Assembly (NCBI GenBank): GCA_016204945.1
Contig: JACQJQ010000100.1
Location: 1-50,926 of the forward strand
Reading direction: 5' to 3'
DNA length: 50,926 bases
Origin: Elusimicrobiota bacterium
Lineage (GTDB): Bacteria; Elusimicrobiota; Elusimicrobia; UBA1565; UBA9628
Part shown: in pieces, positions 3,982-44,055 of the stretch
Numbering within the stretch: position 1 is the stretch's first letter
Layout of the letters: every line of letters begins with the position of its first letter
Position numbers and translations under genes: made by a program
Notes under the pieces: generated by a model
The model's database searches: none
The model's input: the letters and a program-made list of their open reading frames with translations, nothing else
What the model was told of the DNA's origin: nothing

Positions 3982-4293
3982 TTAGTTGAGGGAAATGCTC
4001 TCGATTTTGATGGACGTCAGCCACTGACGATGGCCCTGCGTCTTCTTGTAGGCCTTCTTGGTGCGCTTCTTGAAAACGATGATTTTCGGCCCCCGGCCCT
4101 GCTTCACGACGGTCGCCGTGACCTTCGCGGCGCGCGTGGACTTGGGCTCCTGCCCCTCGGGAGCGTCGCCCACGGCCCAGAGCGCGTTGAACGTCAAAGT
4201 CTCGCCCTCCTTGACCTCCAGCTTCTCGACCTTGACGGTCTCGCCGGGAACGACCCAAAGCTGTTTTCCGCCCGTCTCGATGATCGCGTACAT
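3982..4293 (-). CDS. rplU: 50S ribosomal protein L21
   Basis: MYAIIETGGKQLWVVPGETVKVEKL.. The sequence GAGGAG lies 4 nt upstream of the ATG. The rest of the 838-aa track ORF is antisense to nrdJ. Confidence 0.9.
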   Translation of the reverse strand: MYAIIETGGKQLWVVPGETVKVEKLEVKEGETLTFNALWAVGDAPEGQEPKSTRAAKVTATVVKQGRGPKIIVFKKRTKKAYKKTQGHRQWLTSIKIESISLN

Positions 4294-4419
4294 GGGACTC
4301 CTCTTGAGGTAGGCGTACATCATAACAAAAGCCTCGCCGCAACGCAACATGCCGCATGCGCCGGTCCGCCCCTCTGGCGACGCGCCCGGAAGGCTGTTAC
4401 ACTCCCGATTGGAACGCGG

Positions 4420-6480
4420 ATGGCCAAAACCAAGCCCCCCGGCAAGGTCCGCCTGACCGAGAATCAGCTCAAGGTCATCCAGGACAAGTACATGCGCGAC
4501 GCGCCGACGGTCGAGGCGTGGCTGATGGGCGTGGCGCGGAACGTGGCCCTGGGCGAGATCCTCTCCCACCCCCAAGCCGAGGCCTGGGGCGCGTTCGACG
4601 GGGTCAAGCGAAAAGTCGAGCGCGGCATGAGCCTCTACCACCAGGGCCTTGCCGACCACGACGCCCGTCACGCCAATTTCCGGCGCCTGATGGACAACCT
4701 GGAGAGGACGACGGCCAGGATTCCCGCGGCCAAGGCCCTTCGCGAAAAATGGGCGAACGCGTTCTACGACATGATGGCGCGCTGGGACTTTCTCCCCAAT
4801 TCCCCCACCTTGATGAACGCCGGCCGCGAGCTCCAGCAGCTGTCCGCCTGCTACGTTCTGCCGGTGCCCGACTCGATGGAGGGCATTACCAAGTCGCTCG
4901 GCGCCCAGGCCATGATTCAGAAGTCCGGCGGGGGCACGGGCTTCTCGTTTTCGTCGATACGCCCCAAAGGCGACCTCGTCAAGAAAACGCGGGGCGTGGC
5001 CTCGGGCGCCTTGTCCTTCATGAAGTTGTTCGACACGATGACCGAGGTGGTCAAGCAGGGCGGCGCGCGCCGCGGCGCCAACATGGCGGTCCTGCGCTAC
5101 GACCATCCCGAGATCATGGACTTCATCCGCATGAAAACCTCGCCGGGGATGCTGGAAAATTTCAACGTTTCGGTCGGCATCGACGAGGCCTTCATGCGCG
5201 CCGCGGAGGCCGACGCCGAGTACCCGCTGGTCAATCCCCGCTCGGGCGAGCCCGTCGGGAAGCTGCGCGCCCGGGAAGTCTTCGAGGCGATGGCCGAGTG
5301 CGCCTGGAAGACGGGCGACCCCGGCTTCGTCGTCCTCGACCGCATCAACGCCTCGGGCTCGAACACGACGCCGGCGCTCGGCCGAATCGAGAGCACGAAT
5401 CCCTGCGGCGAGCAGCCTCTCCTGCCCTGGGAGCCGTGCAACCTGGGCTCGCTCAATCTTTCCGCCTTCGTCGACGGCAAGGGCCGATGGAACTTCCCGC
5501 GCCTCGAGAAGAGCGTCGGCCTCGCCATCCGCTTCCTTGAGGACGTCATCGAGGTCAACGACTACCCGCTGCCCGAGATCGAGCGGCTCGCCAAGGGCAA
5601 TCGCCGCGTCGGGCTCGGCGTGATGGGGTGGGCCGAGGCGCTCGTCAAGTCCGGGGTCGCCTACGCGGACCCCGAGGCGCTCGAGTTGGCCGACAAGGTC
5701 ATGTCGTTCATCAACGCCGCGGCGCTCGACGCCTCGGAAAAAATCGCCGCGAAGCGCGGCCCGTTCCCGAACTGGAAGGATTCGGTCTACGATCCCATGT
5801 CCAGGCACTTCCGCGGCGAGAAGCGCCGTCCGCGCCATTGCGCGCGCACGACCATCGCGCCGACGGGCACCATCGCGATCGCGGCCGGACTCCAGGGCGG
5901 CGGCATCGAGCCGTTTTTCGCGATCGCGTACACGCGCTACAACGCGAGGGCCCTCGATCTCCTGGAAAGCGGCGGGACCCCGGACGACAAGGACGTCTTC
6001 TTCGAGGCGAATCCGCTCTTCAAGGAATTCGCCGCGAGCAGCGGCTGGTTCGGACTCGATGAGAAGACGCTGATGAAGCGGATCGACGAGAACCGTCAAT
6101 CCCTGAGCGGCATTCCCGAGATTCCGGAGCGCGTGCGGCGGCTGTTCGCCACGGCCCATGACATCTCGACGCAAACGCATGTCCGCATGCAGGCGGCCTT
6201 CCAGCGCCACGTCGACAACGGCGTCTCGAAAACGATCAACCTGCCGGAAACGGCGACGATCAAGGACGTCCGCGACGCCTATCTTCTCGCCTATCGCCTC
6301 GGCTGCAAAGGCGTCACCGTCTATCGCGACGCCTCCAAGGCCCGGCAGGTGCTCAATCTCCGCGCCTCCGCGGCGGCGCCGGCCGAGCGCTGCCCGAAAT
6401 GCCTCTCGCGCAACGTCGCGCGCGAGTCCGGGTGCTCCGGCGCGACCTGCCACGACTGCGGGCACTCCGAGTGCTCGTGA
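4420..6480 (+). CDS. nrdJ: adenosylcobalamin-dependent (class II) ribonucleotide reductase
   Basis: Start at MAKTKPPGKVRLTENQLKVIQDKYM. Motifs: LPNSPTLMNAG, SACYVLPVPDSMEGI, GGGTGFSFSSIRPKG, STNPCGEQPL. C-terminal Cys cluster CPKC..CHDCGHSEC. Confidence 0.9.
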   Translation: MAKTKPPGKVRLTENQLKVIQDKYMRDAPTVEAWLMGVARNVALGEILSHPQAEAWGAFDGVKRKVERGMSLYHQGLADHDARHANFRRLMDNLERTTARIPAAKALREKWANAFYDMMARWDFLPNSPTLMNAGRELQQLSACYVLPVPDSMEGITKSLGAQAMIQKSGGGTGFSFSSIRPKGDLVKKTRGVASGALSFMKLFDTMTEVVKQGGARRGANMAVLRYDHPEIMDFIRMKTSPGMLENFNVSVGIDEAFMRAAEADAEYPLVNPRSGEPVGKLRAREVFEAMAECAWKTGDPGFVVLDRINASGSNTTPALGRIESTNPCGEQPLLPWEPCNLGSLNLSAFVDGKGRWNFPRLEKSVGLAIRFLEDVIEVNDYPLPEIERLAKGNRRVGLGVMGWAEALVKSGVAYADPEALELADKVMSFINAAALDASEKIAAKRGPFPNWKDSVYDPMSRHFRGEKRRPRHCARTTIAPTGTIAIAAGLQGGGIEPFFAIAYTRYNARALDLLESGGTPDDKDVFFEANPLFKEFAASSGWFGLDEKTLMKRIDENRQSLSGIPEIPERVRRLFATAHDISTQTHVRMQAAFQRHVDNGVSKTINLPETATIKDVRDAYLLAYRLGCKGVTVYRDASKARQVLNLRASAAAPAERCPKCLSRNVARESGCSGATCHDCGHSECS

Positions 6481-6529
6481 TCGTCGGAATGTGACCAAAG
6501 TCGCTTCCTTTAATTACATGGAAGTTTCC

Positions 6530-6559
6530 TTGCTTTGTGGCCGACTAAGGACCTATACT
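6530..6559 (+). promoter_or_regulatory. sigma70-like promoter of the pilin module: TTGCTT (6530-6535), 18 nt, TATACT (6554-6559), then 8 nt to the ATG at 6568
   Basis: Hexamers read directly from the sequence. There is no Shine-Dalgarno between the -10 box and the ATG. Confidence 0.4.
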
Positions 6560-6567
6560 TCGTGGGC

Positions 6568-9159
6568 ATGCGCGAGCGAAACACGCGGCGGGGCGGCACC
6601 TTGACGGAGCTGATGGTGGCCGTCGCCGTCCTGTCCATCGGCGTCCTGGGCCTGTTCGGGGCGTTCCGCTTCATCGCCCGCACGACCCTGATCTCGCGCG
6701 CGACCTCGCTGGCCACCAATCTCGGCCAGGAGCGCATCGAGTCGCTCAAGAACCTGAACTATTACGCCCTCCAGATCACGACCGCGACCGGAACCGACTC
6801 GACCGTCGAACCGCACGTCCTTTACGACACGGTCAACTACCCCCCGGAAACAATCGCGATCGGCGGCATCACCTTCACGCGCTACACCTACGTGAGCATG
6901 GCCGAGCTCTCGGGCAGCGACATCGACGAGGTGTCCGCCACCTACCCCGACACCGGCCTCAAGCAGATCACGACCCACATCATCTGGTCGGAGGCGGGAC
7001 GGAAAAAGGTGTGGAGCCTGCGCAACCTGCTGGAGAACCCGAACATCAACCCGCTTGACTCGACGATCACCGGCACCGTGCGCAATTCCGCGGGCGGGAC
7101 GGTGGCCAGCGCCGTCGTGGTGGTCGAGCAGAACGAGGATTGGGGCGCCGCGGCGGACGGCTCCGGCGTGTTTTCGTTCTCGGTCTATCACGGCACCTAT
7201 ACTTTGCGCGCCTCCTCGCACAGCTTCACCGACGCCGTCTCCACGTCGGTCGTCGCCAGCAGGAGCGCGATCGCCGTGCGCGACCTCACCCTGACGTCCG
7301 TCCCGACCGGCTACATCTCCGGCAACGTCTGGTTCAACTCCGGCCTGGTCATCAGCCAGGTGGTCGCGGAGACCACGACCTGGACGGGAGGCGACCTCGT
7401 CCGCAACGTCGAGTACATCGAGCTGTTCAACCCCACGACTTATCCGATCAACATCGGAACGACCGGCGATCCCGAGATCCGCGTCGACTACGACTGCGAG
7501 GCCGCGGGGTTCGATAAGTCCCACGACGATTTTAATTTCGTTTTCATGACCACCTACGTGCCCGCGCGCCACCATTACCTCTTGGCCAGCGCGACGGCCT
7601 TCATGATCGACGGCGCGGCGGTCAACGCCGACGCCTGCTTCGGCGTGGCCCCCAACTGCGACACCGCGCCGACCATTCCCGACTATCTCGACAGCGCTCG
7701 CGCGGGCGGCCTGCGCCTGCGGCGCTACTCCGACAACGCCTACTACGACAGCGTGGGCTGGGACGACAACAACAACATCGCCAGCGCGGACCCCGGGATC
7801 GCGGAAGGAACCTCGATCCCCAATTATACGGCGGCTGGTCGCGACGGCTTGGAGGCGGGCAACCAAATCGTGCGCGTCTCAAGCCCCGGCGCCAGCGTGG
7901 CGGCCATGTGGACCTACGGACGCGCCTACGACTCGAACGACAACTCGAGGGACTTCTTGTATCCGTCCGGCGTGTTCGACGGGATCGTCTATTCGCCGAG
8001 GAACACGAGCAACAGCGAGCGCCCCACGATCACGGGCAAAACCGCGGTCGGCGCCTACGTCTCCGTCAGCGACCCGAACTCCGGCTCGACCATCGCCTAC
8101 GTCGCCTACGTCACGAGCGGGTCCCTCTCCTTGCCCTACGCGCGATTCGCGCTCCCGGGCGTCGCGACGGGGACCTGGAGCGCCGCCGCCGCCTACGGCT
8201 CGTACGCCGCCTTCATCGACTCCGTGACCGTCTCCCAAAACGCCTATACCGGCCTCCCCAACGCCGACACGACCCCCTCGTGGGCCGGAGCCAACCTGCA
8301 TCACATCGTGTTGACCGACTCGATGGTCTCCGGCTTCGTCAAGGGCGTGGTCACCGACTCCGCGGGCGCGCCGATCAACGGCATCACCGTGCAGGGCGGC
8401 GGAAGCTCGAAGGTCACGGGCTCCAACGGCGTGTACTTCATGCCCGTGTCGAGCGGAACGATCACGCTCGTCGCCAACCCCAACAACCTGGTCTCGACCT
8501 ACGTGCAGGGCGTGGAGACGCCCTCCGTGACGGAGGGCGCGGTCACGACGCAGAACTTCACCTTGCCCCTCGGCGGACGCATCACGGGCTATGTCACCAC
8601 CGGCACGACCCCGCTGGCCTACCAGCCCATCGCCGCCACGAGCGGTGGCAGCCAGTCCGGCGCCGGCGTCACCGACACCGGCGGCAACTTCACGATACGG
8701 AACGTCTCGACGGGCACCCACACGGTCTTCCCCGTGCTCGAATCCGGCCAGGACGTGACGCCGAACACGATCGACGTGATCCTGACCTCCGCCGGCGGCG
8801 TGTTCGCCGGCACCTTCACCGTCTCCGGGGCGTTCGGCAACATCGCGGGCACCATCTCCGACGCGGCCGGGCTCGTGACCTCCGGCGCCCTCCTCCTGGC
8901 CTCGACCAGCACGATCGCCAGCTCGCCCTCGGCCATCGTGGCCTCGTCGGCGCCGGCGCAGCTGCCCATGTACATGGTCTCGAGCAAGGCCGACGGCAGC
9001 TACACCCTGCCGGTGCGCGGCGGCGCCAGCCCCTACTATCTCTCCGTCTACGTCCCCGTGATCTCGGCCGCGGGCGGCGTGTCGATAACGACCAAGACCT
9101 ACAGCGGGATCGTCGTCAGCCCGAGCTCGACGACGGTCAAGTACGTGACGATCCCATGA
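6568..9159 (+). CDS. giant PilV-like type IV minor pilin (863 aa) with a lamin-tail domain and four CarboxypepD_reg-like segments
   Basis: Prepilin signal MRERNTRRG|GTLTELMVAVAVLSIGVLGLFGAF with Glu at +5. LTD hallmarks VEYIELFNPTTYPINI .. GGLRLRRYSDNAYYDSVGW. Repeated G-x-V-x-(D/N)-x-x-G-x-x-(I/V)..A-x-V ...G-x-(F/Y) blocks. I prefer the ATG at 6568 to the track's TTG at 6535 because it gives a 9-aa leader peptide. Confidence 0.8.
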   Translation: MRERNTRRGGTLTELMVAVAVLSIGVLGLFGAFRFIARTTLISRATSLATNLGQERIESLKNLNYYALQITTATGTDSTVEPHVLYDTVNYPPETIAIGGITFTRYTYVSMAELSGSDIDEVSATYPDTGLKQITTHIIWSEAGRKKVWSLRNLLENPNINPLDSTITGTVRNSAGGTVASAVVVVEQNEDWGAAADGSGVFSFSVYHGTYTLRASSHSFTDAVSTSVVASRSAIAVRDLTLTSVPTGYISGNVWFNSGLVISQVVAETTTWTGGDLVRNVEYIELFNPTTYPINIGTTGDPEIRVDYDCEAAGFDKSHDDFNFVFMTTYVPARHHYLLASATAFMIDGAAVNADACFGVAPNCDTAPTIPDYLDSARAGGLRLRRYSDNAYYDSVGWDDNNNIASADPGIAEGTSIPNYTAAGRDGLEAGNQIVRVSSPGASVAAMWTYGRAYDSNDNSRDFLYPSGVFDGIVYSPRNTSNSERPTITGKTAVGAYVSVSDPNSGSTIAYVAYVTSGSLSLPYARFALPGVATGTWSAAAAYGSYAAFIDSVTVSQNAYTGLPNADTTPSWAGANLHHIVLTDSMVSGFVKGVVTDSAGAPINGITVQGGGSSKVTGSNGVYFMPVSSGTITLVANPNNLVSTYVQGVETPSVTEGAVTTQNFTLPLGGRITGYVTTGTTPLAYQPIAATSGGSQSGAGVTDTGGNFTIRNVSTGTHTVFPVLESGQDVTPNTIDVILTSAGGVFAGTFTVSGAFGNIAGTISDAAGLVTSGALLLASTSTIASSPSAIVASSAPAQLPMYMVSSKADGSYTLPVRGGASPYYLSVYVPVISAAGGVSITTKTYSGIVVSPSSTTVKYVTIP

Positions 9160-9650
9160 GGAAATTCCGCGAACGCGCCGGCTACACCCTGACCGAGCTG
9201 ATGCTGGTCGTCGCCATCGTCGGCATTCTCTCCACCATCGGACCGGGCATGCTGACCAGCATGCAGAACTTCTTCCTGATGACGAGCGCGCGCTACGAGA
9301 TCCAGCGCGACGCGCGCACGACGCTCGACACGGTCAACCGCTACCTGCGCCAGGCGGTGGCCTCCACGGTGATCATCGACACCAACGGCCAGGGCCCGTT
9401 TTCCCGCATCCGCTTCAAGCACGTGGACGGCCGCTACATGGAGTTCCGCCAAAACGGGAAAAAGCTCATCCAGGTCATCGACACCGCCGAGTCCGTGGTC
9501 AGTGAAAACCTCGTCTACATCGCCTTCACCTACCCCCATACCGACGACACTTCGATCATCAGCGTCGCGATCACCATGGGCAAGTCCATCCAGCTCGGCC
9601 GCCGAAAGGTGCTCGAGCTGACCATCCAGAAAATCCGCGTCATGAACTGA
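9156..9650 (+). CDS. PilW/GspJ-like type IV minor pilin (164 aa)
   Basis: MRKFRERAG|YTLTELMLVVAIVGILSTIG is a prepilin N-methylation motif with Glu at +5. The ATG overlaps the upstream stop (ATGA, 9156-9159). Confidence 0.8.
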   Translation: MRKFRERAGYTLTELMLVVAIVGILSTIGPGMLTSMQNFFLMTSARYEIQRDARTTLDTVNRYLRQAVASTVIIDTNGQGPFSRIRFKHVDGRYMEFRQNGKKLIQVIDTAESVVSENLVYIAFTYPHTDDTSIISVAITMGKSIQLGRRKVLELTIQKIRVMN

Positions 9651-9651
9651 C

Positions 9652-10977
9652 ATGAAGACAAATCCATCGCCCGAGCGGCGCGGCCAGATCCTCCCCGGCG
9701 CGATCGCCATGCTTCTGATCCTGGCCGTCATGGTCCCGGCCATCGTCTACTGGGTTCAGCGCGAGGGCGTCTACGCGAGCAAGCAATCCCACAACACCAC
9801 CGCCTTCCACTTGGCGGAAGCAGGCGCGGAAAAAGCCTACCTCTACATCTCCCTCTCCACGATCACCTGGAACTCCATCCAGGCCGGCGAGGTCCAAGAC
9901 GACTACAATTTCGACAAGACGTTCGAGGATATCCCGGGCGGCACCTACACGATCAGCATCACGAGCGGCCCGGGCGTCCAGCAGGCGACGATCATCAGCG
10001 TCGGGCGCGACCGTTTCCGCAAGGAGACGCGCGCCCTGCGCGTGGTCTACAGCAATTCCATTCTCGGCGACACCGCCATCTACTCCGGGCGGGGCGTGCA
10101 GATCGGCAACAACGTGACCGTCGAATGGGGCGGGGTCATGAGTCCCTACACGATCATGGCCAACAACGCCAATCATCCGCAATTCTGGTCCGCCAGCCAA
10201 ATCACCACGAAGGACACCAACCCGGATCCTCCGAATTGCGACGGCGACACGCCGGCGGACGGGACCATCTGCTGCCAGTGGCACTCGTATGAGAAAAGCC
10301 TTCCCTCCACGCCCTCCATCGACTTAGACTTCTACCGGGCCTCCGCCGCGGCGACGACGGGCTGCCCGAGCCACGCGGGCGCGGCCGGAGCGCTGTTGGA
10401 CGGAACCCCGTCGCCGGGCCGATGCTATTACCCCGGCGCCGTCACCAATTGGGACGACACGACCAACGGCAAGACGATCTTCATGGAAAACGACCTGACG
10501 GTCAAGTCGAACGGCATGTTCCACACCGGCACGATGATCGTCATGGGCAACGTCAACCTGCCCAACGGCCAGTGGGGCGACGGCAACGTGACGATGAGCG
10601 TGCCGAGCAGCGCCTGGAAGCAGTACTGCAACGACTGGGACCATTACCACGATACGTTCGACTCCGCCGGCCCCGCCGTCTTCCCGGGCCTCAACAGCGA
10701 TTACGCGCCGACCGGGCTGACGCATTCCTCCTCCAAGGTCGCGGTCAACGGCTTTCTGTACGTCGGCGGCAACTTCAACAACGGCGGCGGCGGCGGCGGC
10801 AACAGCGACGTCTACGGCGTGCTCTACGCGGTCGGCACGACGACCATGACCCCGACGTCCAACGACGTGACCTTCTTCTACAACGGCCAGGCGACCGCCA
10901 ACCTCGTCACCACGGACGTGAGCTTGACCCGGGTTTCATGGAAAGACGAGCTGCGCGGCTGGCCCTCGGGACTGTGA
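9652..10977 (+). CDS. PilX-like pilus assembly/tip protein (441 aa)
   Basis: N-terminal hydrophobic helix [20 protein letters not shown], followed by [19 protein letters not shown] (PilX_N-type signature). It starts 1 nt after the upstream stop. Confidence 0.65.
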
Positions 10978-11591
10978 GCCGCCCCAAGGGCGTGTTCATC
11001 GTCTTGGAGGGCCCCGACAAATCCGGGAAGTCCACCCAGGCCCGCATGCTCGCGGAGGCGCTCCGGGCGAAGGGGCGAGAGGTCCTGCACACGCGCGAAC
11101 CCGGCGGCACTTCGGTCGCCGAGGGCGTGCGCCGCGTGCTTCTCGATCCGAATCTGACGATCGATCCCCTGACCGAGCTTTTTCTCTACGAGGCCTCGCG
11201 CGCCCAGCACACCAGCGAAAAAATACGTCCCGCGCTGGAGGCCGGGAAAATAGTCGTCTCGGAGCGCTTCACGATGTCGACGGACGCCTATCAAGGCGCC
11301 GCCCGCGGCCTCGGGCTCGCGATAACCGCGACCCTCAACAAGATCGCGACGGGCGGGCTCCGGCCGGACCTCACCGTCCTCCTCGACATCCCGGCGGCCG
11401 AGTTCGACAGCCGGGATCCGGGACGCGAGCTCGACCGCCTCGAACGCGAAAGCGCCGACTTCCGCGGCAAGGTCCGGAGAGGCTATCTGAAAGCCGCCAA
11501 GGCCGACCCCCGCGCGGTCGTGCTGAGCGGCCGGCTGCCGGCCGACGTCCTGCACGCCAAGATCCTCGCGTTGGCCGAGAAAAAGCTCTGA
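10974..11591 (+). CDS. tmk: thymidylate kinase
   Basis: The GTG start overlaps the PilX-like stop (GTGA). [17 protein letters not shown]-loop, [12 protein letters not shown]. Confidence 0.9.
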
Positions 11592-12523
11592 TGCGCCTCG
11601 ACAAGGTCCTCGGCCAACGCCGCGCCGTCAAGACCCTCGAAAGCCTCCTGGCGTCCGAGCGCCTGCCGGCCGCGATGCTGTTCGTCGGGCCCGAAGGCGT
11701 CGGCAAGCGCCTGGCCGCCGTCGAGCTGGCCAAGGCCCTGCTGTGCCGCGAGCGCCCGTTCACCGGCGAGGCCTCCTGCGGGGAATGCCGCGACTGCCGA
11801 GGCGTCGACGGGCGCGTCCACCCGGACGCCGTCATGGTCGACGCGGCCTACCAGGCGTCCCTGGAGGAGGGCGAGCTCGAAAAACAAAAAGTATGGAAGG
11901 TGGACACGATCCGCCGCCTCCTCAAGGACCTCAGCTTCAAGTCCATGCTGGACGGCTGGAAGATCGCCATGATCCCCGACGCTCAACGCCTCAACGAGGC
12001 CGCGGCCAACGCGATGCTCAAGATACTGGAGGAGCCCCAGCCGAAGACCCTGTGGATATTGGGCGCCACCCAACGCGAACGGCTGCCCCGCACGATCTCC
12101 TCGCGCTGCTTTACAATCCCCTTCGGGCCCCTGCCCGAGCCCGTTCTCGAGAAAATCTTGGCCGGACGGGGCGCGGCGCCCGCCGAAGCCAAGCGCCTGG
12201 CCGCGCTGTCCGACGGCTCCGCCGGACGCGCGCTTGAGCTCGGCGTCGATAACGGCCTCTCCCAAGGCGACGGGCCGCTCGCCGCCGTCACCGTTTCCGA
12301 CGGCCTGCCGAGGGACCTCGCCGCCGCGCGCGTCAAGGTGGAGGGCGCCCTCTACTCGCTCGCCCAACAGCTGAGACTCCGGCACCTCAATGGAGAACGG
12401 GCATTTGGAGATGTCGAAGGCCCCTTGCGCGAGCTCTCCCGCCTGCGCGCGGCCCTGCGCGCCAACGCCGATCCCAAACTGATCCTGACGCTGGCCGCCC
12501 TGGAGGCCGAAGCCGCGCGGTAA
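11591..12523 (+). CDS. holB: DNA polymerase III subunit delta-prime
   Basis: [31 protein letters not shown] zinc module, conserved tmk-holB order. Confidence 0.85.
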
Positions 12524-12527
12524 GCCC

Positions 12528-14039
12528 ATGACCAAGCGCTACTACATCACGACCCCGATCTACTACATCAACGCGGCGCCCCACATCGGCCACGCGTACA
12601 CGACGATCGCCGCCGACGTTCTCGCCCGCCACATGCGCGGCCGCGGACGGGCCGCCCACCTGCTCACGGGCACCGACGAGCACGGCCAGAAGATCGAGGA
12701 CGCGGCCAAGGCCGCGGGCAAGCACGTGATGGACTTCTGCGACCAGACCTCGGCCAAGTTCCGCGATCTCTGGAAGCACCTCGACGTCCACGTCGACGAC
12801 TACATCCGCACGACGGAGAAGCGCCACGAGAGCAAGGTCCAGGAGCTGTTCGCCCTGCTTCTCAAAAACGGGGACATCTACAAAGGCCGGTATGAGGGCC
12901 TCTACGACGTGGTCAGCGAGTCCTTCGTCAAGGAGAGCGACGCGGTGAAGGGCCCCGGCGGCGTCCTGCTCGGCCCCGACTCGGGCAAGCCCCTGCAGAA
13001 TCTCTCCGAGGAGACCTATTTTTTCAAGCTCTCGAAATTCGGACCGAGACTGCTCGCCCATTATGAGGCGAACCCGGGCTTCCTCGCGCCCCCGCACCGC
13101 GCCGCGGAGCTCCTCCGCTTCGTGTCGGACGGACTCGAGGACATCTCGGTCTCGCGCACGAAGGTCAAGTGGGGCATCCCCGTTCCCGGAGACCCCGGCC
13201 ATACGATCTACGTCTGGTTCGACGCGCTGATCAACTACTGGTCGGCGGCCGCCGCTTCGCCGGATCTTTGGCCGGTGGACGTCCAAATCGTGGGAAAGGA
13301 GATATTCCGCTTCCACGGCGTGATCTGGCCGGCGATGCTGATGGCGGCCGGCCTGCCCCTGCCGAAACAAGTCTTCGCGCACGGCTGGTGGACGATCGAG
13401 GGGCAGAAAATGTCGAAGTCCCTCGGCAACTTCATCTCGCCGTACGACGTCACGGCCGAGTTCGGCGTGGACGCCCTGCGCTACTTTCTCCTGCGCGAGA
13501 TGCCGTTCGGCAGCGACGGCGACTTTTCCAAGGCGTCCCTGACCAAGCGCTACAACGCCGAGCTCGCCAACGACCTGGGCAACCTCGTCTCGCGCGTGTC
13601 GGAAATGGTGGACAAGTTCCTCGGCGGCCGCCTCCCGACGAAGCCTCCTCTTGGCCATGACTTCTACACGACGACGGTCGCCAGGCGCACGCCCGAGATA
13701 TCGGCCAAGATGGAGGCCCTGGACTTCTGCGGCGCCCTGGACGCGATCTGGGAGGTGATCCGCAGCCTCAACGCGCGCGTCAACGAAAAAGCCCCCTGGA
13801 AGCTCGCCAAGACGGACCCGAAGGAATGCGAGCTCGTCCTCTTCGATCTCGTCTGGTCCCTGCGCCTCGTCGGCGGCTGGCTCGACCCGTTCATGCCCTC
13901 GACCGCGGCGAAGATCCACATGCAGCTCGGCGTGCGCCAGTTCCCCGACGCGCTGACGGCCGAGGACGTGCTCGCCGGCAAGACTCAGCGCCAAGGCCTG
14001 ATCGCGAAAGGCCCCGTCCTGTTCCCGCGTAAAATTTAA
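12528..14039 (+). CDS. metG: methionine--tRNA ligase (short form)
   Basis: YYITTPIYYINAAPHIGHAYT (HIGH motif) and KMSKSLGN. Confidence 0.95.
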   Translation: MTKRYYITTPIYYINAAPHIGHAYTTIAADVLARHMRGRGRAAHLLTGTDEHGQKIEDAAKAAGKHVMDFCDQTSAKFRDLWKHLDVHVDDYIRTTEKRHESKVQELFALLLKNGDIYKGRYEGLYDVVSESFVKESDAVKGPGGVLLGPDSGKPLQNLSEETYFFKLSKFGPRLLAHYEANPGFLAPPHRAAELLRFVSDGLEDISVSRTKVKWGIPVPGDPGHTIYVWFDALINYWSAAAASPDLWPVDVQIVGKEIFRFHGVIWPAMLMAAGLPLPKQVFAHGWWTIEGQKMSKSLGNFISPYDVTAEFGVDALRYFLLREMPFGSDGDFSKASLTKRYNAELANDLGNLVSRVSEMVDKFLGGRLPTKPPLGHDFYTTTVARRTPEISAKMEALDFCGALDAIWEVIRSLNARVNEKAPWKLAKTDPKECELVLFDLVWSLRLVGGWLDPFMPSTAAKIHMQLGVRQFPDALTAEDVLAGKTQRQGLIAKGPVLFPRKI

Positions 14040-24179: not shown

Positions 24180-25541
24180 ATGATCGTCCTCGCTCTCGCC
24201 TCCCTGCTCGCGCTGTCCGGTCCCGCTCGCGCCGCCGCGCCCTCCAAAGGCTACGTCGTGAAGGTCGACGGCGCCCAGGTCTGGCTCGATCTGACGGCCG
24301 CGGACGGCGCCGTCCCGGGCCGCGGCTTCCAGGTGTACGAGGAAGGCGAGGACCTCAAGCATCCCGTGACCGGCGAGCAGCTCGGCAAGGCCGAAAAGAA
24401 TATCGCCGAAGGCAGGATCGAGCTGGTCTCCGAGAAGCACTCTCTGGGACGGACCGCCGCGCGCCCCCTCTCCGGGCCCGTGCCCCTGGTCCGCGCCGGC
24501 CAGCGCGCGCGCCTCGCGGCCGCCTCGGCCGCGCCCGACGCCCCGGCCGCGCCCGCCTCGCCGCGCCGGCCCGGCGAGGCGGACCTGCGCGCTCCCCGGT
24601 CGCGCGGGGCGTCCCTGCCGTTCGTCGTCACCGGGATGGCGGTCGCGGATTTCGACGGGGCCGGCAAGCCGCAGATCGTTCTGTCCGATGACAAGGCCTT
24701 CCGGCTGTACGCCTATCCCGCCGCGGAAAACAAGGTTCTGGCGCAGGGCGAACTGCCCGGGACCGGGGTCCGCATCCTGTCCCTGGAAGCGGCCGACCTC
24801 GACGGCGACAAAAAATGCGAGCTCTACGTCTCCGCGTACAACGAGCAGTTCCGCCGCCTGGAAACGTCCGTTTACGCGCTCGACGCGGGCAAGTGGACCA
24901 AGACCGCGGACCTCCCCATGCTCGTGCGCGCGCATCAGAACGAAAAAGGCGAGCGCGTCGTCGCCTCCCAGCAGATCCAAGACGACAAGACGTTCCCGTT
25001 CGGCGCGGTGTACCCCTTGCTGTACAAGGACGGCCGCTACGCGCAGGGCCGCCCGAAGCTCAACCCCAAGCGCGCCGACTGGCTGTACGGCTTCACCTAC
25101 GCCCAGCTCGACGCGGCGGGCGAACCCGCCGCGCTGTACCTGACCAGCGTCAACAGCCTGCGCGCGCAGTTCGCCAAGGGTCATTGGCGCTCCGCGGAGA
25201 GCTTCGGCCAGAGCCCGACCCGCGTGCGCTGGCATGACCACCTGCTCGAATTCCATCCGGCCATGCTCGCGACGTACGGCCCCAAGGGCTTCGACAAGCT
25301 CTACATCGTACGCAACCTCGCCATGCTCGGCGGCCTCGCCAATCCCTTCGGTCTGTTCAACGGCGGGGAACTGCACGCCAAGAACTGGACCGGCGTGGCC
25401 TTCGAGACGGCGTGGAAGGCCGAGCTCGGCGGCTCGTCCTCGGGTTTCGCCCTGGTCGAGCCCGAGGCCGGCCGCCGGGAGCTCGCCGTCGCCGTCGCGG
25501 GGTCGACCGGCAAGTCCGCGGTCTGGACTTTCGACCCCTAG
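24180..25541 (+). CDS. secreted FG-GAP/VCBS-like repeat protein
   Basis: Signal peptide MIVLALASLLALSGPARA. Motifs ADFDGAGKPQIV and ADLDGDKKCELYV. Confidence 0.55.
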   Translation: MIVLALASLLALSGPARAAAPSKGYVVKVDGAQVWLDLTAADGAVPGRGFQVYEEGEDLKHPVTGEQLGKAEKNIAEGRIELVSEKHSLGRTAARPLSGPVPLVRAGQRARLAAASAAPDAPAAPASPRRPGEADLRAPRSRGASLPFVVTGMAVADFDGAGKPQIVLSDDKAFRLYAYPAAENKVLAQGELPGTGVRILSLEAADLDGDKKCELYVSAYNEQFRRLETSVYALDAGKWTKTADLPMLVRAHQNEKGERVVASQQIQDDKTFPFGAVYPLLYKDGRYAQGRPKLNPKRADWLYGFTYAQLDAAGEPAALYLTSVNSLRAQFAKGHWRSAESFGQSPTRVRWHDHLLEFHPAMLATYGPKGFDKLYIVRNLAMLGGLANPFGLFNGGELHAKNWTGVAFETAWKAELGGSSSGFALVEPEAGRRELAVAVAGSTGKSAVWTFDP

Positions 25542-25543
25542 GC

Positions 25544-25936
25544 ATGGGCGGCCGCAAGATTCTCGTCGTGGACGACGACCCGTCGATCCGCGAGATTCTT
25601 TCCATCCAACTGACGCGGCTCGGCTACGAGGTCACGACGGCCGAAGACGGACTCGAGGCCGTCGCGGCCTTCAAGTCCGCCGCGCCCGACGCGATCCTGC
25701 TGGACCTCATGATGCCGCGGGTCGACGGGCTCGCCACCTGCCGGCAGATACGCGCGCTTGAAAAAAAAGCCGGCGCGAAGCGCACTCCCGTCCTCTTCCT
25801 CACGGCGCGCGACTCGACGCACGACAAAACCAGCGCGGCGCTCTCCGGCGGAGACGAGTTCGTGCCCAAGCCCGTCAGCATCCAGGAACTGCGCGACCGC
25901 CTCGAGGCCGTCTTCCTCAAAAAGGGAAAGCCGTGA
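25544..25936 (+). CDS. single-domain CheY-like response regulator
   Basis: KILVVDDDPSIRE, DAILLDLMMPRVDG, LFLTARD, FVPKPV. Confidence 0.85.
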   Translation: MGGRKILVVDDDPSIREILSIQLTRLGYEVTTAEDGLEAVAAFKSAAPDAILLDLMMPRVDGLATCRQIRALEKKAGAKRTPVLFLTARDSTHDKTSAALSGGDEFVPKPVSIQELRDRLEAVFLKKGKP

Positions 25937-26898
25937 TCGGCGCGGCCTTTCTCCTGGCGCTCGCGGCCTCTCCGGCCGCGTCGTCGGGCTTCGGCAACGC
26001 CTCGATGGGGAGCAAGCCGTACGGCGTCCTGCTCCTCGCCTCCGACGCGGGCGGAGCGTGGAAGACCGAGCTCGGCGCGCTTCGCTCGCAGCTGCGCGGC
26101 GTCGCCGTCGAAAGCGTCGAGTCCGCCGGAGACGTCGTCGCGATCCAGCGAGGCCTCGACCGGCTCAAAAGCCAGCACGTGACGAAGGTCGTCGCGGTCC
26201 CGCTCGAGCTCGTCGCCGAGTCGCCCGTCATGGACGAGCTGCGTTATCTGTTCGGAATCCGGGAGGAGCCGGCGCGCGACAGGCCCGACGCCCCGCGCCC
26301 GGGCATGGCGCCGGTCAAATCCGCGAATAAGAGCTCTCTGGTCTTCCCGGGCCGCGGCCCCAGGCGCCTCAAGAGCGAGTCCGAGCTCGTCCTCGCCGCC
26401 ACGATCGACAAGTCGCCCGCGCTCGCCGGCATATTAGCCGACCGCGCGAGGACCCTCGCGCGCGACCCGGCCAAGGAGTCCGTGGTGCTCGTGGGGATCG
26501 CCCCCCGCTCGGACAAGGGCCTGGAAGCCTGGAAGACGGCGGCGGCGGCGATCGCCGAGTCCATCCGCGTCAAGGGCGGCTTCCGCGAGGCCGCGATCAT
26601 CTGGGTGCGCGACGGCACGCGCGCCGGCCAGCAGGACAAGGATCGAGAATCGAACAAGGCGACTTTGCGCCGCCTCGCGACGCAGGGCGGCGTCGTGGCG
26701 GTGCCCCTCGCCCCCGACGGCCGCCGCGTCGAGAAGCTTCTTCGGCGCCAGCTCGGCTCCGCCGGCTACCGCTGGAACGGCAAGGGCTTGATCGGCGACC
26801 CGCGCCTGGCCGACTGGATCGTCTCGATTTCGAAATCCGCGTCCGCCCTTCCCGACGTCAGACAGTATCGAGACAACGCTCCAGGAGGATTCCGATGA
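25933..26898 (+). CDS. exported protein with two CbiX-like (class II chelatase fold) halves that lack the usual His residues
   Basis: GTG start overlaps the response-regulator stop. Signal-like N-terminus. Repeated pattern VLLLAS..KVVAVPLELV and VVLVGIAPRS..VVAVPLAPDG. Confidence 0.35.
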   Translation: MIGAAFLLALAASPAASSGFGNASMGSKPYGVLLLASDAGGAWKTELGALRSQLRGVAVESVESAGDVVAIQRGLDRLKSQHVTKVVAVPLELVAESPVMDELRYLFGIREEPARDRPDAPRPGMAPVKSANKSSLVFPGRGPRRLKSESELVLAATIDKSPALAGILADRARTLARDPAKESVVLVGIAPRSDKGLEAWKTAAAAIAESIRVKGGFREAAIIWVRDGTRAGQQDKDRESNKATLRRLATQGGVVAVPLAPDGRRVEKLLRRQLGSAGYRWNGKGLIGDPRLADWIVSISKSASALPDVRQYRDNAPGGFR

Positions 26899-29039: not shown

Positions 29040-30044
29040 ATGAAAACCATCCTCACCGTCGGAGTCGCCCTCTTCGCCGCCGTCGCGGGCGCCGCGACGC
29101 CCGCCGAGGTCGAACGCGGCGACCTCGAGATCGTCGTCAAGGCGTCGGGCACCGTCGTGGCCGACGGCGTCTTCCTCATCAAGTCGGCGATCGAGGGCCG
29201 CGTCGAGAGCGTCCCGGCCTCGACCTACGCCTGGCATAAGGCGGACCAGACGCTCGCCTGGCTCGCGCACAGGGAGCTGGCGGCGATGATCGACTCGAAA
29301 GGCTCCCAGGACGTCGGCATCCTCGAGGACCGCTGGCAGCGCGTCTTCCGCCCGGCGCCCGCGCGCTGCCGGGACACGTGCTTCATCCTCAAGAGCTTCC
29401 TCAAGCTGAAGACCTGGATCAAGCCCGAGTCCCCGATGTTCGAGGCCGCCTCGACGCTCAAGCTCGTGGGACGCGTGCGGCCCGAGGACGCGTACTGGAT
29501 CCGCGACGGGCAGGAGCTCGTTTTTTGGCCGCTCGCGGATCCGAGGCGGGTCCTGCGCGGACGCGTGGCGCAATACCGCCTCGACCGGCGGGACGCGAAA
29601 GACTCCGCTCCGGGCGGCGCGTTCACTTTGATCATGCCGCCCGACCGCTCCCTCGTCCCGGGAACCGCGTGGGAAGGCCGGATCATCCCGCTCTCGAGGA
29701 AAGGCGCGCTCCATGTGCCGACCGGGGCGCTCATCCGCAGGGGCGAGGACACCTATTTGACCGTGCGCGTCTCGACCGGGATCACGACGCGGGGGCGGAC
29801 CGAGGTCACCTCCGGCGTCCAAGAGGGGCGCGGCATCCTCATCCTCGGAGACTCGCAGCTGTCCGGCGCGCAGCGCTACGCGCCGGAAGACGATCACGAG
29901 GCCCTCCGGCTCCGAGCGCGCGAACGGCGGGACGCCGAGGCATGGGACGAGGGGCGCCCGGCCCCGGCGAAGCGGCGGGACAAGCACGCCGAGGTCATCG
30001 ACAACGCCGACTACGGGGAGGATCCTTATGCCGAGCCCCAATAG
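29040..30044 (+). CDS. HlyD/membrane-fusion-protein-like periplasmic adaptor (orphan)
   Basis: Signal peptide. VERGDLEIVVKASGTVVADGVFLIKSAIEGRVESV (MFP N-terminal pattern) and ALHVPTGALIRRGEDTYLTVRV..TEVTSGV..GILILGD (C-terminal pattern). Confidence 0.5.
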   Translation: MKTILTVGVALFAAVAGAATPAEVERGDLEIVVKASGTVVADGVFLIKSAIEGRVESVPASTYAWHKADQTLAWLAHRELAAMIDSKGSQDVGILEDRWQRVFRPAPARCRDTCFILKSFLKLKTWIKPESPMFEAASTLKLVGRVRPEDAYWIRDGQELVFWPLADPRRVLRGRVAQYRLDRRDAKDSAPGGAFTLIMPPDRSLVPGTAWEGRIIPLSRKGALHVPTGALIRRGEDTYLTVRVSTGITTRGRTEVTSGVQEGRGILILGDSQLSGAQRYAPEDDHEALRLRARERRDAEAWDEGRPAPAKRRDKHAEVIDNADYGEDPYAEPQ

Positions 30045-40404: not shown

Positions 40405-41712
40405 ATGGATTCGCCGTACCGAGGACACCTCCCCCACAAGACGGGCGTCTACATCATGCGCGACGCCGCGGGCGAAATCCTGTACATCGGCAAAGCGGTC
40501 GATCTCTTCAAACGCGTGGCCCAGTACTTCAATCCCAACAAGACCGATGTGATGGACCGCTCGCTCGTCCCGCTGATCCGCGCGATCGACTATATCCTCT
40601 GCGAATCCGAGCGCGAGTCCCTGCTTCTCGAGCGCCGCCTGATCAACGAGAATCAGCCGTTCTTCAACGTGCTTTGGAAGGACGGCAAAAGCTACCCCTA
40701 CGTCAAAATCACCATGGGAGAAGACTTCCCGCGGATAGTCATGACGCGCAAAAAGAGCCGCGACGGCGGCGCCTACTTCGGCCCCTTCCCCAGAGTGGCG
40801 CCCCTGCGGGGACTCCTGCGCCACCTTTGGCGGCTGAAAATATTCCCGCTCCGCCCCTGCCGATGGGACTTTTCCGAGACGAAGCCCCTCGACCGCCGCC
40901 GGATCAACTCCTGCCTCTATTACCACACGAAGGAATGCCCGGCCCCGTGCGCGGGCAAGACGACGAAAAAAGATTACCGGGAGATCGCGGAGCGCGCCGC
41001 GCTGTTCTTCAGGGGCCGCTATGCCGCCCTCGGGAAAAAATTCGAGCGGGAAATGAAGCGCGCCTCGAAGGCCCTGGATTATGAGCGCGCGGCGCGATTG
41101 CGCGACAACATATCCGCCCTATCCCAAATGGGAGAGCGGGTGCGGGTGCGGGCGGTGGAGGCGGAGACCGTCGGCAGGCACACCGCCCCGACCCGGATGC
41201 TGACCGATCTCCAAAGGGCTCTCCGGCTGCCCGCGCCCCCGGTTCATATCGAGTGCTTCGACGTCTCGCATTTCCAGGGGCATCAGACGGTCGCCTCGAT
41301 GGTCTGCTTCATCGGGGGAAAGGCGCATCGCGGCCACTATCGGAAGTTCAAGATCCGCGGCACGGCGGGCATCGACGATTTCAAGTCCATGCGCGAGGCC
41401 GTCTACCGCCGCTGCAAGCGCCTGAAGATGGAGGGCGCGGCCCTGCCCGACCTGATCCTCATCGACGGCGGCAAGGGCCAGCTGGGCGCGGCGCGGGCGG
41501 CCCTCAAGGAGCTCGGGACCGATATCCCGACGGCCTCCCTCGCCAAGCGGATCGAGGAGATATTCCTGCCCGGGCGCCCCGAATCGCTCATCCTGAGGCT
41601 CGACGACCCCGCGCTGCGCCTGCTGCAGCGGCTGCGCGACGAGGCGCACCGCTTCGGCGTGGCGTACCACCGCCTGCTTCGCGCCAAGCGCCTTTTCGGA
41701 CCGCGGCCTTAG
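40405..41712 (+). CDS. uvrC: excinuclease ABC subunit C, short form without the C-terminal (HhH)2 domain
   Basis: GIY-YIG domain (GVYIMRDAAGEILYIGKA), UVR domain (LDYERAARLRDNISAL), endonuclease domain (IECFDVSHFQG, DDFKSM, PDLILIDGGKGQL, RDEAHRFG). Ends at 435 aa. Confidence 0.85.
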   Translation: MDSPYRGHLPHKTGVYIMRDAAGEILYIGKAVDLFKRVAQYFNPNKTDVMDRSLVPLIRAIDYILCESERESLLLERRLINENQPFFNVLWKDGKSYPYVKITMGEDFPRIVMTRKKSRDGGAYFGPFPRVAPLRGLLRHLWRLKIFPLRPCRWDFSETKPLDRRRINSCLYYHTKECPAPCAGKTTKKDYREIAERAALFFRGRYAALGKKFEREMKRASKALDYERAARLRDNISALSQMGERVRVRAVEAETVGRHTAPTRMLTDLQRALRLPAPPVHIECFDVSHFQGHQTVASMVCFIGGKAHRGHYRKFKIRGTAGIDDFKSMREAVYRRCKRLKMEGAALPDLILIDGGKGQLGAARAALKELGTDIPTASLAKRIEEIFLPGRPESLILRLDDPALRLLQRLRDEAHRFGVAYHRLLRAKRLFGPRP

Positions 41713-42944
41713 CCCTGCTTGCCGGCCAGCTCTCCCATGGCGAACATGGGCATGAACATCGCGATGACGATCGTGCCGATGATGAGGCCCATGACGACGA
41801 TGACGATGGGTTCTATGAGCGAGGTCAGGCCCTTGACCGCGGTGTCGACCTCCTGGTCGTAGAAATCCGCGATCTTGCTCAGCATGATGTCGAGCGCGCC
41901 GGTCTCCTCGCCGACGGAAATCATCGAGGTGACCATGTTCGGAAAGATGCCGGATTTCTTGAGGGGATCCGACAGGTGCCCGCCTTCGCGGATGGACTCG
42001 CGCGTCTGGCTGACGGCCTCCGCGATGACGACGTTCCCGGCCGTGGACGCGACGGTCTCGAGCGCCTGCATGATCGGCACGCCCGACTTGATCAAGGTGC
42101 CGAGCGTGCGCGTGAAGCGCGCGACGGCGACCTTCTTGAGGATCGGCCCGAAAATAGGCGCCTTGAGGGACCGCGTGTCGACCCACTTGCGGCCCGCCGC
42201 CGTTGAATAGAATTTTCCGAAACCCTTCCAAGCGGCGACCGGGAACGCGACGAGCAGGTACCAGCGGGCTTTCATCGCGTCCGAAAGGTCGATGAGAATC
42301 TGCGTCGGCAGGGGAAGTTCGGCGCCGAAGCCGGCGAAGATGTTCTTGAAGGTCGGGATCACGAAGACCATCAGGAACACCGTAACGAGCGAGCAGATCG
42401 AGAGCACGATCGCGGGATACATCATCGCCGACTTCACCTTGGCCTTCAGGGCCTCCGAGCTCTCGAGATAGGCCGTCAAGCGCTCCAGGATGGTGTCCAG
42501 AATGCCGCCGAGCTCTCCGGCCTTGACCATCGAGCAGTACAGGTCCGGAAACGCATGGGGATGCTTCTTCAGGGCGTCGGAAATCGACAGGCCGGCCTCG
42601 ATGTCGGACTTGACCGCGCTCAGGACCTCCTTGAAGGCGGGGTTCTCCGCCTGTCCCTCGAGAATGCCCAGGCTCTGCACGATCGGCACCCCCGCGCCGA
42701 CCAAGGTCGAGAGCTGGCGGGAGAACAGAGACAGGTCCTTCGAGGGGATCTCGCCCTTGCTCTTCTTCCAGCCGATCAGGGCCCGGAACTTCTCGAGCGG
42801 GGGCACCGGCTTCTCCACGATCTCGAGAACGACCATTTTCTGGCCGCGGAGCTTCTCGACGGCCGCGCGCTGCTCGTCGGCCTCGATCAACCCCTCCATG
42901 ACGAGGCCGGCGGCGGTTTTAGCTTTGTATTTGTAGGCGGGCAT
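41709..42944 (-). CDS. pilC: type IV pilus platform protein PilC (GspF family)
   Basis: Start MPAYKYKAKTAAG. Two GspF repeats (FSRQLSTLVGAGVPIVQSL / FTRTLGTLIKSGVPIMQAL). Confidence 0.9.
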   Translation of the reverse strand: MPAYKYKAKTAAGLVMEGLIEADEQRAAVEKLRGQKMVVLEIVEKPVPPLEKFRALIGWKKSKGEIPSKDLSLFSRQLSTLVGAGVPIVQSLGILEGQAENPAFKEVLSAVKSDIEAGLSISDALKKHPHAFPDLYCSMVKAGELGGILDTILERLTAYLESSEALKAKVKSAMMYPAIVLSICSLVTVFLMVFVIPTFKNIFAGFGAELPLPTQILIDLSDAMKARWYLLVAFPVAAWKGFGKFYSTAAGRKWVDTRSLKAPIFGPILKKVAVARFTRTLGTLIKSGVPIMQALETVASTAGNVVIAEAVSQTRESIREGGHLSDPLKKSGIFPNMVTSMISVGEETGALDIMLSKIADFYDQEVDTAVKGLTSLIEPIVIVVMGLIIGTIVIAMFMPMFAMGELAGKQG

Positions 42945-42958
42945 AAGCTCTCCCTGCT

Positions 42959-44038
42959 CTAAGATTGCGCGGGCGCCATGTGTCGCTGCATCAGGCGACG
43001 AAGGTCTTCCGGGTCCATGGAATGAGACATCGCCTCCTGGAACGTGATCTTCTGCTTGAGGTAGAGCTCGGCAAGGGACTGGTTCATCGTCTGCATGCCG
43101 ACCTTGCCCCCTGTCTGGATCGCGACCTGGATCTGCTCCACCTTCTGCTCCCGGATCAGGTTGCGGATCGCCGAGTTGACGATGAGCGTCTCGCACGCCA
43201 GCACTCGCCCGGCCCCCGACGCATGGCCGAGCAGCTGCTGGCAGAGGACGGCCTGGAGGACGAAGGAGAGCTGGACGCGCACCTGCTCGAGCTGATGCTG
43301 CGGGAAAACGTCGATGATGCGGTTGATCGTCTGCGCGCAGTCCGTCGTATGGAGCGTCGATAAGACCATGTGGCCCGTCTCGGCGATATTAAGCGCGGCC
43401 TGGATCGTCTCGAGGTCGCGCAGCTCCCCGATGAGGATCACGTTGGGATCCTGCCGCAGGATATGCCGGAGGGCGGTGCCGAACGTCGCCGTGTCCGAGC
43501 CGACCTCGCGCTGATTGATGACGGACTTCTTGTGCGTGTGCACGAACTCGATCGGGTCCTCGATCGTCACGATATGCGCGGAGCGCGTTTCGTTGATGAA
43601 GTCGATCATGCTGCCCAAGGTCGTGGACTTCCCCGATCCCGTCGGCCCGGTGACCAGAATGAGGCCTTTGGGAAGCTTCATGATGTCGAGGATGGACTTG
43701 GGCACGCCGATCTCGTCGAAAGTTTTGAAGGAGCTCGGGATCGCGCGGATCGCTGCGCCGACCGAGCCGGTCTGGCGGTACACGTTCATGCGCACGCGGC
43801 CTATGCCGCGCAGGTTGAAGGCCAGGTCGAGCTCGTTGGACGCCTCGAAGCGCTGGCGCTGCTGATCGTTGAGCAGGGAGTAGATCAAGGTCTGGACCGT
43901 CTCGTTGCCGAGCTTCTCGAAGGGAGTCGGGAGCAGGGCGCCGTCGATGCGCAGCGTCGGGGGAGCCCCCACCGTGAGATGGAGGTCGGACGCTCCGCGC
44001 TCGTGCATCAGCAGAAACAACTCGCCCATCGAAACCAT
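42959..44038 (-). CDS. pilT: type IV pilus retraction ATPase PilT
   Basis: ASDLHL, GLILVTGPTGSGKSTTL, ILIGELRD, GHMVLSTLHT, about 360 aa. AAGGAG lies 6 nt before the ATG. Confidence 0.9.
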   Translation of the reverse strand: MVSMGELFLLMHERGASDLHLTVGAPPTLRIDGALLPTPFEKLGNETVQTLIYSLLNDQQRQRFEASNELDLAFNLRGIGRVRMNVYRQTGSVGAAIRAIPSSFKTFDEIGVPKSILDIMKLPKGLILVTGPTGSGKSTTLGSMIDFINETRSAHIVTIEDPIEFVHTHKKSVINQREVGSDTATFGTALRHILRQDPNVILIGELRDLETIQAALNIAETGHMVLSTLHTTDCAQTINRIIDVFPQHQLEQVRVQLSFVLQAVLCQQLLGHASGAGRVLACETLIVNSAIRNLIREQKVEQIQVAIQTGGKVGMQTMNQSLAELYLKQKITFQEAMSHSMDPEDLRRLMQRHMAPAQS

Positions 44039-44055
44039 GAAGGCTCCTTGAAACC

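Follow-up and report, generated by a model that had tools for sequence, protein, structure and literature searches.

A large modular minor pilin and a ComZ-like partner form a candidate type IV pilus tip complex in Elusimicrobiota

The stretch of DNA analysed here (the window) comprises the 50,926 nucleotides at positions 1 to 50,926 of contig JACQJQ010000100.1 from an Elusimicrobiota bacterium (GenBank assembly GCA_016204945.1). On its forward strand it carries a gene, here called g1 (6568..9159, coding sequence including the stop codon), for an 863-aa protein that an earlier reading of the bare sequence (the original prediction) took to be a PilV-like pilin fused to a lamin-tail domain (LTD) and four beta-sandwich modules, and a candidate tip adhesin or DNA receptor. 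Translation, homologues and AlphaFold modelling establish that g1 is a genuine single gene with a type IV pilin signal and a pilin fold. The protein belongs to the known class of modular pilins, among which it stands out by being so large, by its conservation across the phylum and by having a ComZ-like partner. Together with the products of two downstream genes, g2 and g3, it probably forms a priming or tip complex capped by g3, in which g1 would serve as stalk and adhesin on the tip of a pilus that can retract.

The open reading frame (ORF) and translation on which the original prediction was based were reproduced exactly. The GC content of the window is about 66% (64–72%) and many spurious ORFs are present, and g1 shows the codon signature of the window's real genes, with a GC fraction of 0.93 at third positions (GC3) and 0.53 at second positions. 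The ATG start at 6568 is backed by homologues (consensus ..RGxTLTELMVA), and a longer version starting from TTG at 6535 is unnecessary. From this start, MRERNTRRG (6568..6594) constitutes a class III (prepilin) leader ending in Gly-1, after which (Gly9) prepilin peptidase would be expected to cleave. The protein scores 21.2 bits against Pfam N_methyl (PF07963), which is exactly the gathering cutoff (21.2), and 18.3 bits against the NCBIfam prepilin motif TIGR02532 (cutoff 16.3); N_methyl is also matched by 47 of 54 g1 homologues. In an alignment of 84 homologues, Gly9 (position -1) is found in 75/75 and Glu14 (position +5) in 79/79 aligned sequences, so that the prepilin signal with Glu at +5, as first proposed, is borne out. 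Simple scans for a promoter or terminator near the operon gave nothing beyond chance. Genes of this family are currently annotated as 'carboxypeptidase regulatory-like domain-containing protein' or 'hypothetical protein', which is misleading.

Residues 10–160 (6595..7047) make up the pilin module, which is modelled as an alpha1 helix with Glu+5 (residues 12–61) followed by a beta-sheet head (strands 74–156), with predicted local distance difference test (pLDDT) values of 80–95. At the family level this module resembles the PilV/GspI class: TIGR02523 (PilV) is the commonest class match, found in 26/26 family members (best E 3.2e-8), next to ComGE in 22/26 and GspI in 13/26. The window protein itself scores 21.8 bits against TIGR02523, with a cutoff of 52.2, and curated PilV/GspI membership (TIGR02523/TIGR01707) is not reached. 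When profiles of the g1 pilin module, g2 and g3 were compared with PDB sequences, the matches were confined to pilin N-terminal helices or were absent; the minor-pilin constructs with solved structures do not include alpha1N.

The rest of the chain is modular as well. With the 84 homologues as input, AlphaFold gave a g1 model of mean pLDDT 86.8 that consists of the pilin module and six beta-rich modules. The first of these, S1 (7057..7305, aa 164–246), is a CarboxypepD_reg/transthyretin-like sandwich, and it is followed by the LTD, an additional beta-sandwich S2 (8053..8328, aa 496–587, model strands 497–584), the CarboxypepD_reg-like S3 and S4 (8329..8832, aa 588–666 and 667–755, model strands 589–753) and the CarboxypepD_reg-like S5 (8833..9156, aa 756–863), which forms the distal end of the chain. 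CarboxypepD_reg (PF13620) matches g1 with 56.9 bits (cutoff 32.3) over three stretches, the best being aa 166–242, and matches 54/54 homologues. Further, the g1 family profile finds the transthyretin-like domain of carboxypeptidase D among PDB sequences (3mn8, 5aq0). Profile comparison with hhalign relates S3, S4 and S5 to S1 with probabilities of 96%, 92% and 77%, indicating that these four modules are mutually homologous, and the four CarboxypepD_reg segments of the original prediction are all recovered. Its module list was nevertheless incomplete: the four CarboxypepD_reg segments and the LTD stand, but S2 and a conserved segment at aa 401–495 had been overlooked. S2 appears to be a separate or very diverged sandwich (hhalign probability 22–30% to S1, S3 and S4, and 0.6% to S5).

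Conservation is highest in the pilin module, S4 and S5 (0.67–0.69; S5 0.69). Within S5, a loop at aa ~780–800 (window 8905..8970) is conserved and rich in Ser, Ala and Pro (family consensus ASTxTIxSTPPAIVGSSAPAQ), and pLDDT falls to 54 at aa 791–800; more speculatively, this loop could be glycosylated or act as a flexible binding loop. Whole-chain Foldseek comparison of g1 with the PDB returned the Ig-like and transthyretin-like arrays of pilus adhesins and tip pilins (PitA, SpaC, BcpA, SdrD). These are generic matches to multi-sandwich adhesins, pilins and ushers, with query-normalised TM-scores of at most 0.17 among the 50 listed, and they do not resolve the modules singly.

An 863-aa ORF of this kind might in principle be an artefact in which a frameshift or misassembly has joined two genes. 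Nothing was found in favour of this; we give it virtually no chance, and regard it as excluded because full-length homologues occur across many genomes. Among 5.8 billion proteins, 217 relatives of g1 were detected; of the matches listed, nearly all are 850–900 aa long, with query coverage of 96–100% and identity down to 40%, next to one 537-aa fragment. A second search, seeded with a distant Elusimicrobiaceae sequence, added 296 further relatives of ~720–885 aa. The homologues from both searches come from independent assemblies, are mostly full-length (800–900 aa) and cover the whole query; fragments are few (for example P0064 and P0260), and some variants exceed 1,000 aa. The same fusion was also sought in related genomes, and with each species represented by one genome, g1 relatives turned up in 123 species-level genomes, with 31–74% identity among the 80 that were kept. 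GC3 is uniform (0.93) along g1, and at no module junction does the model lose confidence. One ORF, full-length homologues and a continuous model thus agree with the earlier statement that the adhesin-sized mass is covalently part of the PilV-like subunit.

Every g1 match with an organism name belongs to Elusimicrobia or Elusimicrobiota, and the titles of the 80 kept relatives read Elusimicrobia, Elusimicrobiota, Elusimicrobiales, Elusimicrobiaceae, Endomicrobiia/Endomicrobiales/Endomicrobia or an unclassified 'bacterium'. Among the longer variants, P0386 (1017 aa) and P0373 (1047 aa) keep the module order of g1 with extra insertions, and the sequence pattern of one insertion is fibronectin-III-like; added modules are therefore tolerated by the architecture. 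The pilin head, for its part, appears to be tied to the long chain, because it occurs almost only in long proteins: its profile gave 171 clusters (50% identity) at E<=1e-30 among 1.84 billion representative proteins, and most of the best 150 clusters are ~800–1050 aa long. Stand-alone short PilV relatives of the head were looked for, and nine short matches (<230 aa) were read; all end at or just past the pilin module and eight reach into S1, which is consistent with fragments.

The LTD, with insertions, occupies 7306..7767 (aa 247–400). Its assignment rests on family-level matches rather than on the score of the window protein, which reaches 15.7 bits against PF00932 (cutoff 34.3, E 0.02) at aa 258–297 and covers profile positions 6–38 only. 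PF00932 is matched at E<=0.01 by 40 of 54 g1 homologues. When ten homologues were scanned singly, all ten had their match at the counterpart of window aa 258–400, and in nine of them the match extends from profile position 6–8 to 106–108 of 109; one scores 36.3 bits, above the cutoff, and the others 22–33, several of them 27–33. The LTD originally placed at nt 7343–7770 (aa 259–401) is therefore located correctly and supported by the family, but it is sub-threshold in the window protein itself. The g1 family profile matched no lamin structure among PDB sequences, and whole-chain Foldseek listed only multi-domain adhesins. Profile–profile comparison indicates that the LTD is unrelated to the other g1 modules.

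Directly after the LTD lies a segment modelled mostly as loops (7768..8052, aa 401–495; pLDDT 81–93), which we infer to be an extension of the LTD. It carries the conserved motifs QIVRVSSP and YGRAYDSxxNxxDF, with R436, Y454 and D462 invariant. The part YDSxxNxxDF (aa 454–463, window 7927..7956), in which N459 is present in at least 90% of the family beside the invariant D462, resembles a short acidic metal-binding loop.

The original prediction saw in this LTD a tip-exposed receptor for DNA or another nucleic-acid polymer. LTDs are found in extracellular nucleases such as ExeM, where deletion of the domain slows DNA degradation in vitro (PMC6085458), and the domain is present across the g1 family. 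The role of the ExeM LTD is, however, 'not yet elucidated', and it is dispensable in vivo for extracellular DNA degradation (PMC6085458). The LTD core of g1 is acidic, with 8 K+R against 21 D+E in the window protein (net charge -13) and a family median of -9 that never turns positive (maximum -1). It is the least conserved module of g1 (0.51), and as the third of seven modules it is internal to the chain rather than distal. Because the domain is acidic, variable and internal, and its ExeM counterpart is dispensable in vivo, the idea of the LTD as DNA receptor is weak, and we consider it highly improbable. If there is a DNA receptor at this locus, g3 or the basic g2 are better candidates, g3 because ComZ is its only significant fold match.

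The gene g2 (9156..9650, forward strand; N_methyl 23.3 bits) encodes a 164-aa basic minor pilin, and g3 (9652..10977, forward strand) a 441-aa PilX_N/GspK-type pilin-like protein with a beta-solenoid, recognized from AlphaFold and Foldseek and annotated as 'hypothetical protein'. The genes g1 and g2 overlap by 4 bp (ATGA), and a single base separates g2 from g3. According to tblastn over 82 related loci, g1, g2 and g3 are adjacent and in the same order wherever the contig is long enough, and this order is kept across 31–74% identity despite changing flanks. Common but not constant neighbours, seen in ~30 related loci, are nrd upstream and tmk-holB-metG downstream. In the window (4030..14039), a ribonucleotide reductase gene lies upstream and only a few bases separate the stop codon of g3 from tmk. 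This housekeeping neighbourhood suggests constitutive co-transcription of the triad. Three genomes hold two complete triads (L032/L059, on the same contig JAJZJF010000004.1; L036/L061; L046/L073) that share 29–47% identity in every module; these are ancient paralogues and may provide alternative pilus tips.

N_methyl is matched by 51 of 52 members of the g2 family. Class matches include the Verru_Chthon cassette protein C (52/52), GspH (40), GspJ (32) and ComGF (19), and the class of g2 is ambiguous between GspJ, GspH and ComGF. The family is strongly basic, with a median net charge of +8 and an isoelectric point of 10, while its partners are acidic or neutral; the basicity may have to do with binding of DNA or with charges that complement each other in the complex.

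The window g3 has no Pfam family match, and PilX_N is matched by 12 of 47 g3 relatives, one of which is named PilX N-terminal domain protein at NCBI. Gly-1 is conserved in the family, and Glu never occurs at +5, where Gly (as in the window), Ile, Leu or Ala is found. The net charge is -13 in the window, with a family median of -2. The AlphaFold model of g3 (pLDDT 90.4, predicted TM-score 0.81) places three strands (97–135) before a solenoid and a last strand (425–433) after it, which agrees with the arrangement in ComZ, where a beta-solenoid interrupts a GspK-like pilin fold ahead of its last strand and position 5 is Gly (PMC6561018). When the model was compared with the PDB in Foldseek, the only significant matches were ComZ chains (6qvi; E 1.3e-7 and 4.1e-7, probability 1.0), and the next matches were ice-binding beta-solenoids and tapirin. 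The model therefore points to a ComZ-like fold for g3. Similarly, the nearest neighbour of the ComZ solenoid is an ice-binding protein (PMC6561018), so that g3 and ComZ share fold neighbours.

The motor of a type IV pilus is encoded in the same window, ~32 kb from the triad and on the opposite strand (41.7–45.8 kb). It includes PilC/T2SSF (41709..43196; Pfam T2SSF 1.1e-70), PilT (ORF 42959..44419, match from residue 132; NCBIfam pilT_fam 460 bits, cutoff 319) and PilB, with T2SSE and MshEN domains (44056..45837; Pfam T2SSE 1.9e-136). These genes make a retractile type IVa machine available. Besides g1 and g2, no pilin genes with Glu+5 were detected in the window by a motif scan. Pfam PF05567 (the C-terminal beta-propeller of PilY1, IPR008707) had no match in g1, g2, g3 or the g2 and g3 families (maximum E 1 for g1 and the g2 and g3 families, 0.01 for the window g2 and g3), which agrees with the earlier remark that no pilY1-type gene follows.

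Several other ORFs of the window were noted. Directly upstream of pilB, on the reverse strand, lies a gene (45923..47617) whose 564-aa product is rich in proline and has a single predicted membrane helix. The 453-aa protein encoded at 24180..25541 on the forward strand contains an FG-GAP repeat, and its N-terminus is weakly ExtJ-like. Its neighbour (ORF 25933..26898) has no family match, and the one match of ORF 29040..30044, to an RND adaptor, is weak and well under the cutoff.

These elements can be combined into a mechanism. After cleavage at Gly9, the PilV/GspI-class module of g1 would assemble through its alpha1 helix with g2 and g3; g2 would probably take the GspJ position, and the ComZ-like g3 the GspK/PilX position, on top because it has no Glu at +5. 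The three proteins would form the priming or tip complex of a type IVa pilus that is retractile and powered by PilB, PilT and PilC, and the ~700-residue chain of g1 (S1, LTD, S2, S3, S4, S5) would ride on the pilus tip out through the secretin. In that position the chain may act as both stalk and binding surface, in the adhesin role of a separate PilY1. Pseudomonas and Neisseria use a separate PilY1 protein as tip adhesin. That g1 is an adhesin displayed at the tip is the most reasonable reading, and its ligand is more likely a surface polymer, glycan or particle than DNA. The reading fits the general model for modular pilins and the generic likeness of the g1 chain to multi-domain pilus adhesins. 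Formation of the heterotrimer, location at the tip and function as adhesin are inferred from sequence, gene order and models.

Several results weigh against this reading. The scores of g1 for PilV, GspI and ComGE all lie under the curated equivalog cutoffs, as do those of g2 for GspJ and the other classes. The TM-scores between g3 and ComZ are low (0.25–0.27), and profile searches of PDB sequences gave no sequence-level similarity between the two. The conservation of S4 and S5 could mean contact with a conserved partner of the cell itself and not with an external ligand. No major pilin, secretin or prepilin peptidase (PilD) was found among the window ORFs examined. Further, there is no cultured organism among the named g1 matches, and a cultured carrier (such as Elusimicrobium minutum) was not found among the best 120 matches of the Elusimicrobiaceae-seeded search, which are all proteins from metagenome-assembled genomes.

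Two other placements of the triad have to be weighed. It might be mainly the tip of a competence pilus, as in the Thermus PilA2-PilA3-ComZ system, with g3, g2 or both capturing DNA and the g1 arm as an accessory for spacing, matrix binding or shielding. The fold of g3 speaks for this, since its only significant matches are to ComZ, which binds dsDNA as well as the GspI-like PilA2, as do the basic g2 family, the PilT retraction ATPase in the window and the reported conservation, in most cases, of competence genes within Elusimicrobia (PMC8809381). The resemblance of g3 to ComZ nevertheless does not extend to the sequence, no positions in g3 can be assigned to the lysines with which ComZ binds DNA, and g3 is acidic both in the window and at the family median. 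The window ORFs that were scanned showed no com genes, and such a beta-solenoid also occurs in ice-binding proteins and in tapirin adhesin domains, both among the fold matches of g3. We therefore regard a primary role in competence as unlikely.

The second placement keeps g1 out of an extended pilus altogether, either as an envelope protein that uses a prepilin signal for its export and anchoring or as part of a short pseudopilus resembling the one in a type II secretion system (T2SS), with its array at or under the cell surface. Class matches of the GspI/J/K type would be just as usual for the pseudopili of type II secretion, the triad lies beside housekeeping genes (nrd; tmk-holB-metG) and outside any pilus cluster, and S4 and S5 are highly conserved. 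We hold this to be quite improbable: PilT, a marker of retractile type IVa pili, adjoins PilB and PilC in the window, and a chain of 700 residues of sandwiches suits display on the surface more than the work of a periplasmic piston.

The triad parallels GspI-J-K, PilV-W-X and PilA2-PilA3-ComZ, with the subunit in the I position enlarged about six-fold. With T2SS GspI-GspJ-GspK and type IVa PilV-PilW-PilX it shares the gene order, the class matches of g1 (PilV/GspI) and g3 (PilX_N) and a cap without Glu+5; it differs from them in the ambiguity of g2 between J and H and in class scores below the cutoffs. Compared with PilV-PilW-PilX plus PilY1, the adhesin-sized mass resides on the PilV-like subunit itself.

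The Thermus thermophilus complex PilA2-PilA3-ComZ (6qvi) is alike in comprising a GspI-like pilin, a further minor pilin and a large solenoid subunit in the GspK position without Glu+5; Gly at +5 in the window g3 also fits this comparison. ComZ of Thermus, the proposed DNA receptor at the tip of the competence pilus, binds the GspI-like PilA2 and dsDNA; it is argued to cap the pilus, and its location is compatible only with the pilus tip (PMC6561018). In contrast to Thermus, no PilA1/GspH-like gene adjoins the triad, g3 has no sequence similarity to ComZ, and where PilA2 is a small pilin with a small subdomain, g1 carries ~700 extra residues.

Modular pilins are defined by the N-terminal IPR012902 motif plus at least one domain that is not specific to pilus biology, and are proposed to consist of a 'carrier' pilin module that presents 'effector' modules, probably exposed at the tip (PMC8179133). 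With N_methyl, PF13620 and LTD, g1 falls within this definition. A 2021 census recorded 66 proteins that combine pilin and PF13620, the third most frequent architecture, and six that combine pilin and LTD, and no architecture with PF13620 and LTD together is present (PMC8179133 Dataset S1). The view that no characterised pilin has this architecture is hence literally true, but modular pilins were already established and those of the PF13620 and LTD types had been tabulated.

The characterised proteins nearest in design are PilB (vWA) and PilC (lectin) of Streptococcus sanguinis, in which a small N-terminal pilin module carries C-terminal grafts that are proposed to be tip-exposed (PMC8179133, PMC9934059). 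These are bimodular, monoderm and experimentally shown to be adhesins, while g1 has seven modules, occurs in a diderm phylum and is known from sequence and model. CofB of enterotoxigenic Escherichia coli and TcpB also have a pilin module followed by beta-repeat or beta-sandwich domains, are located at the tip and are needed to start assembly; however, they are homotrimers of type IVb pili, use other domain families without LTD or CarboxypepD_reg, and share no detected homology with g1.

How type IV pili gain tip functions is an active question, and g1 adds an unusually large diderm example, in which a module is grafted onto a minor pilin beside a ComZ-like cap. On a more tentative view, to which we attach low confidence, the triad would represent a phylum-wide tip of three proteins without PilY1, in which a g1 arm of ~25 nm and a ComZ-like cap would combine attachment to surfaces or prey with DNA capture, and duplicate triads would serve as alternative tips. 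For the Elusimicrobiota, almost all of which are uncultured, the triad offers a three-gene target for studying attachment to surfaces or partners, or DNA uptake.

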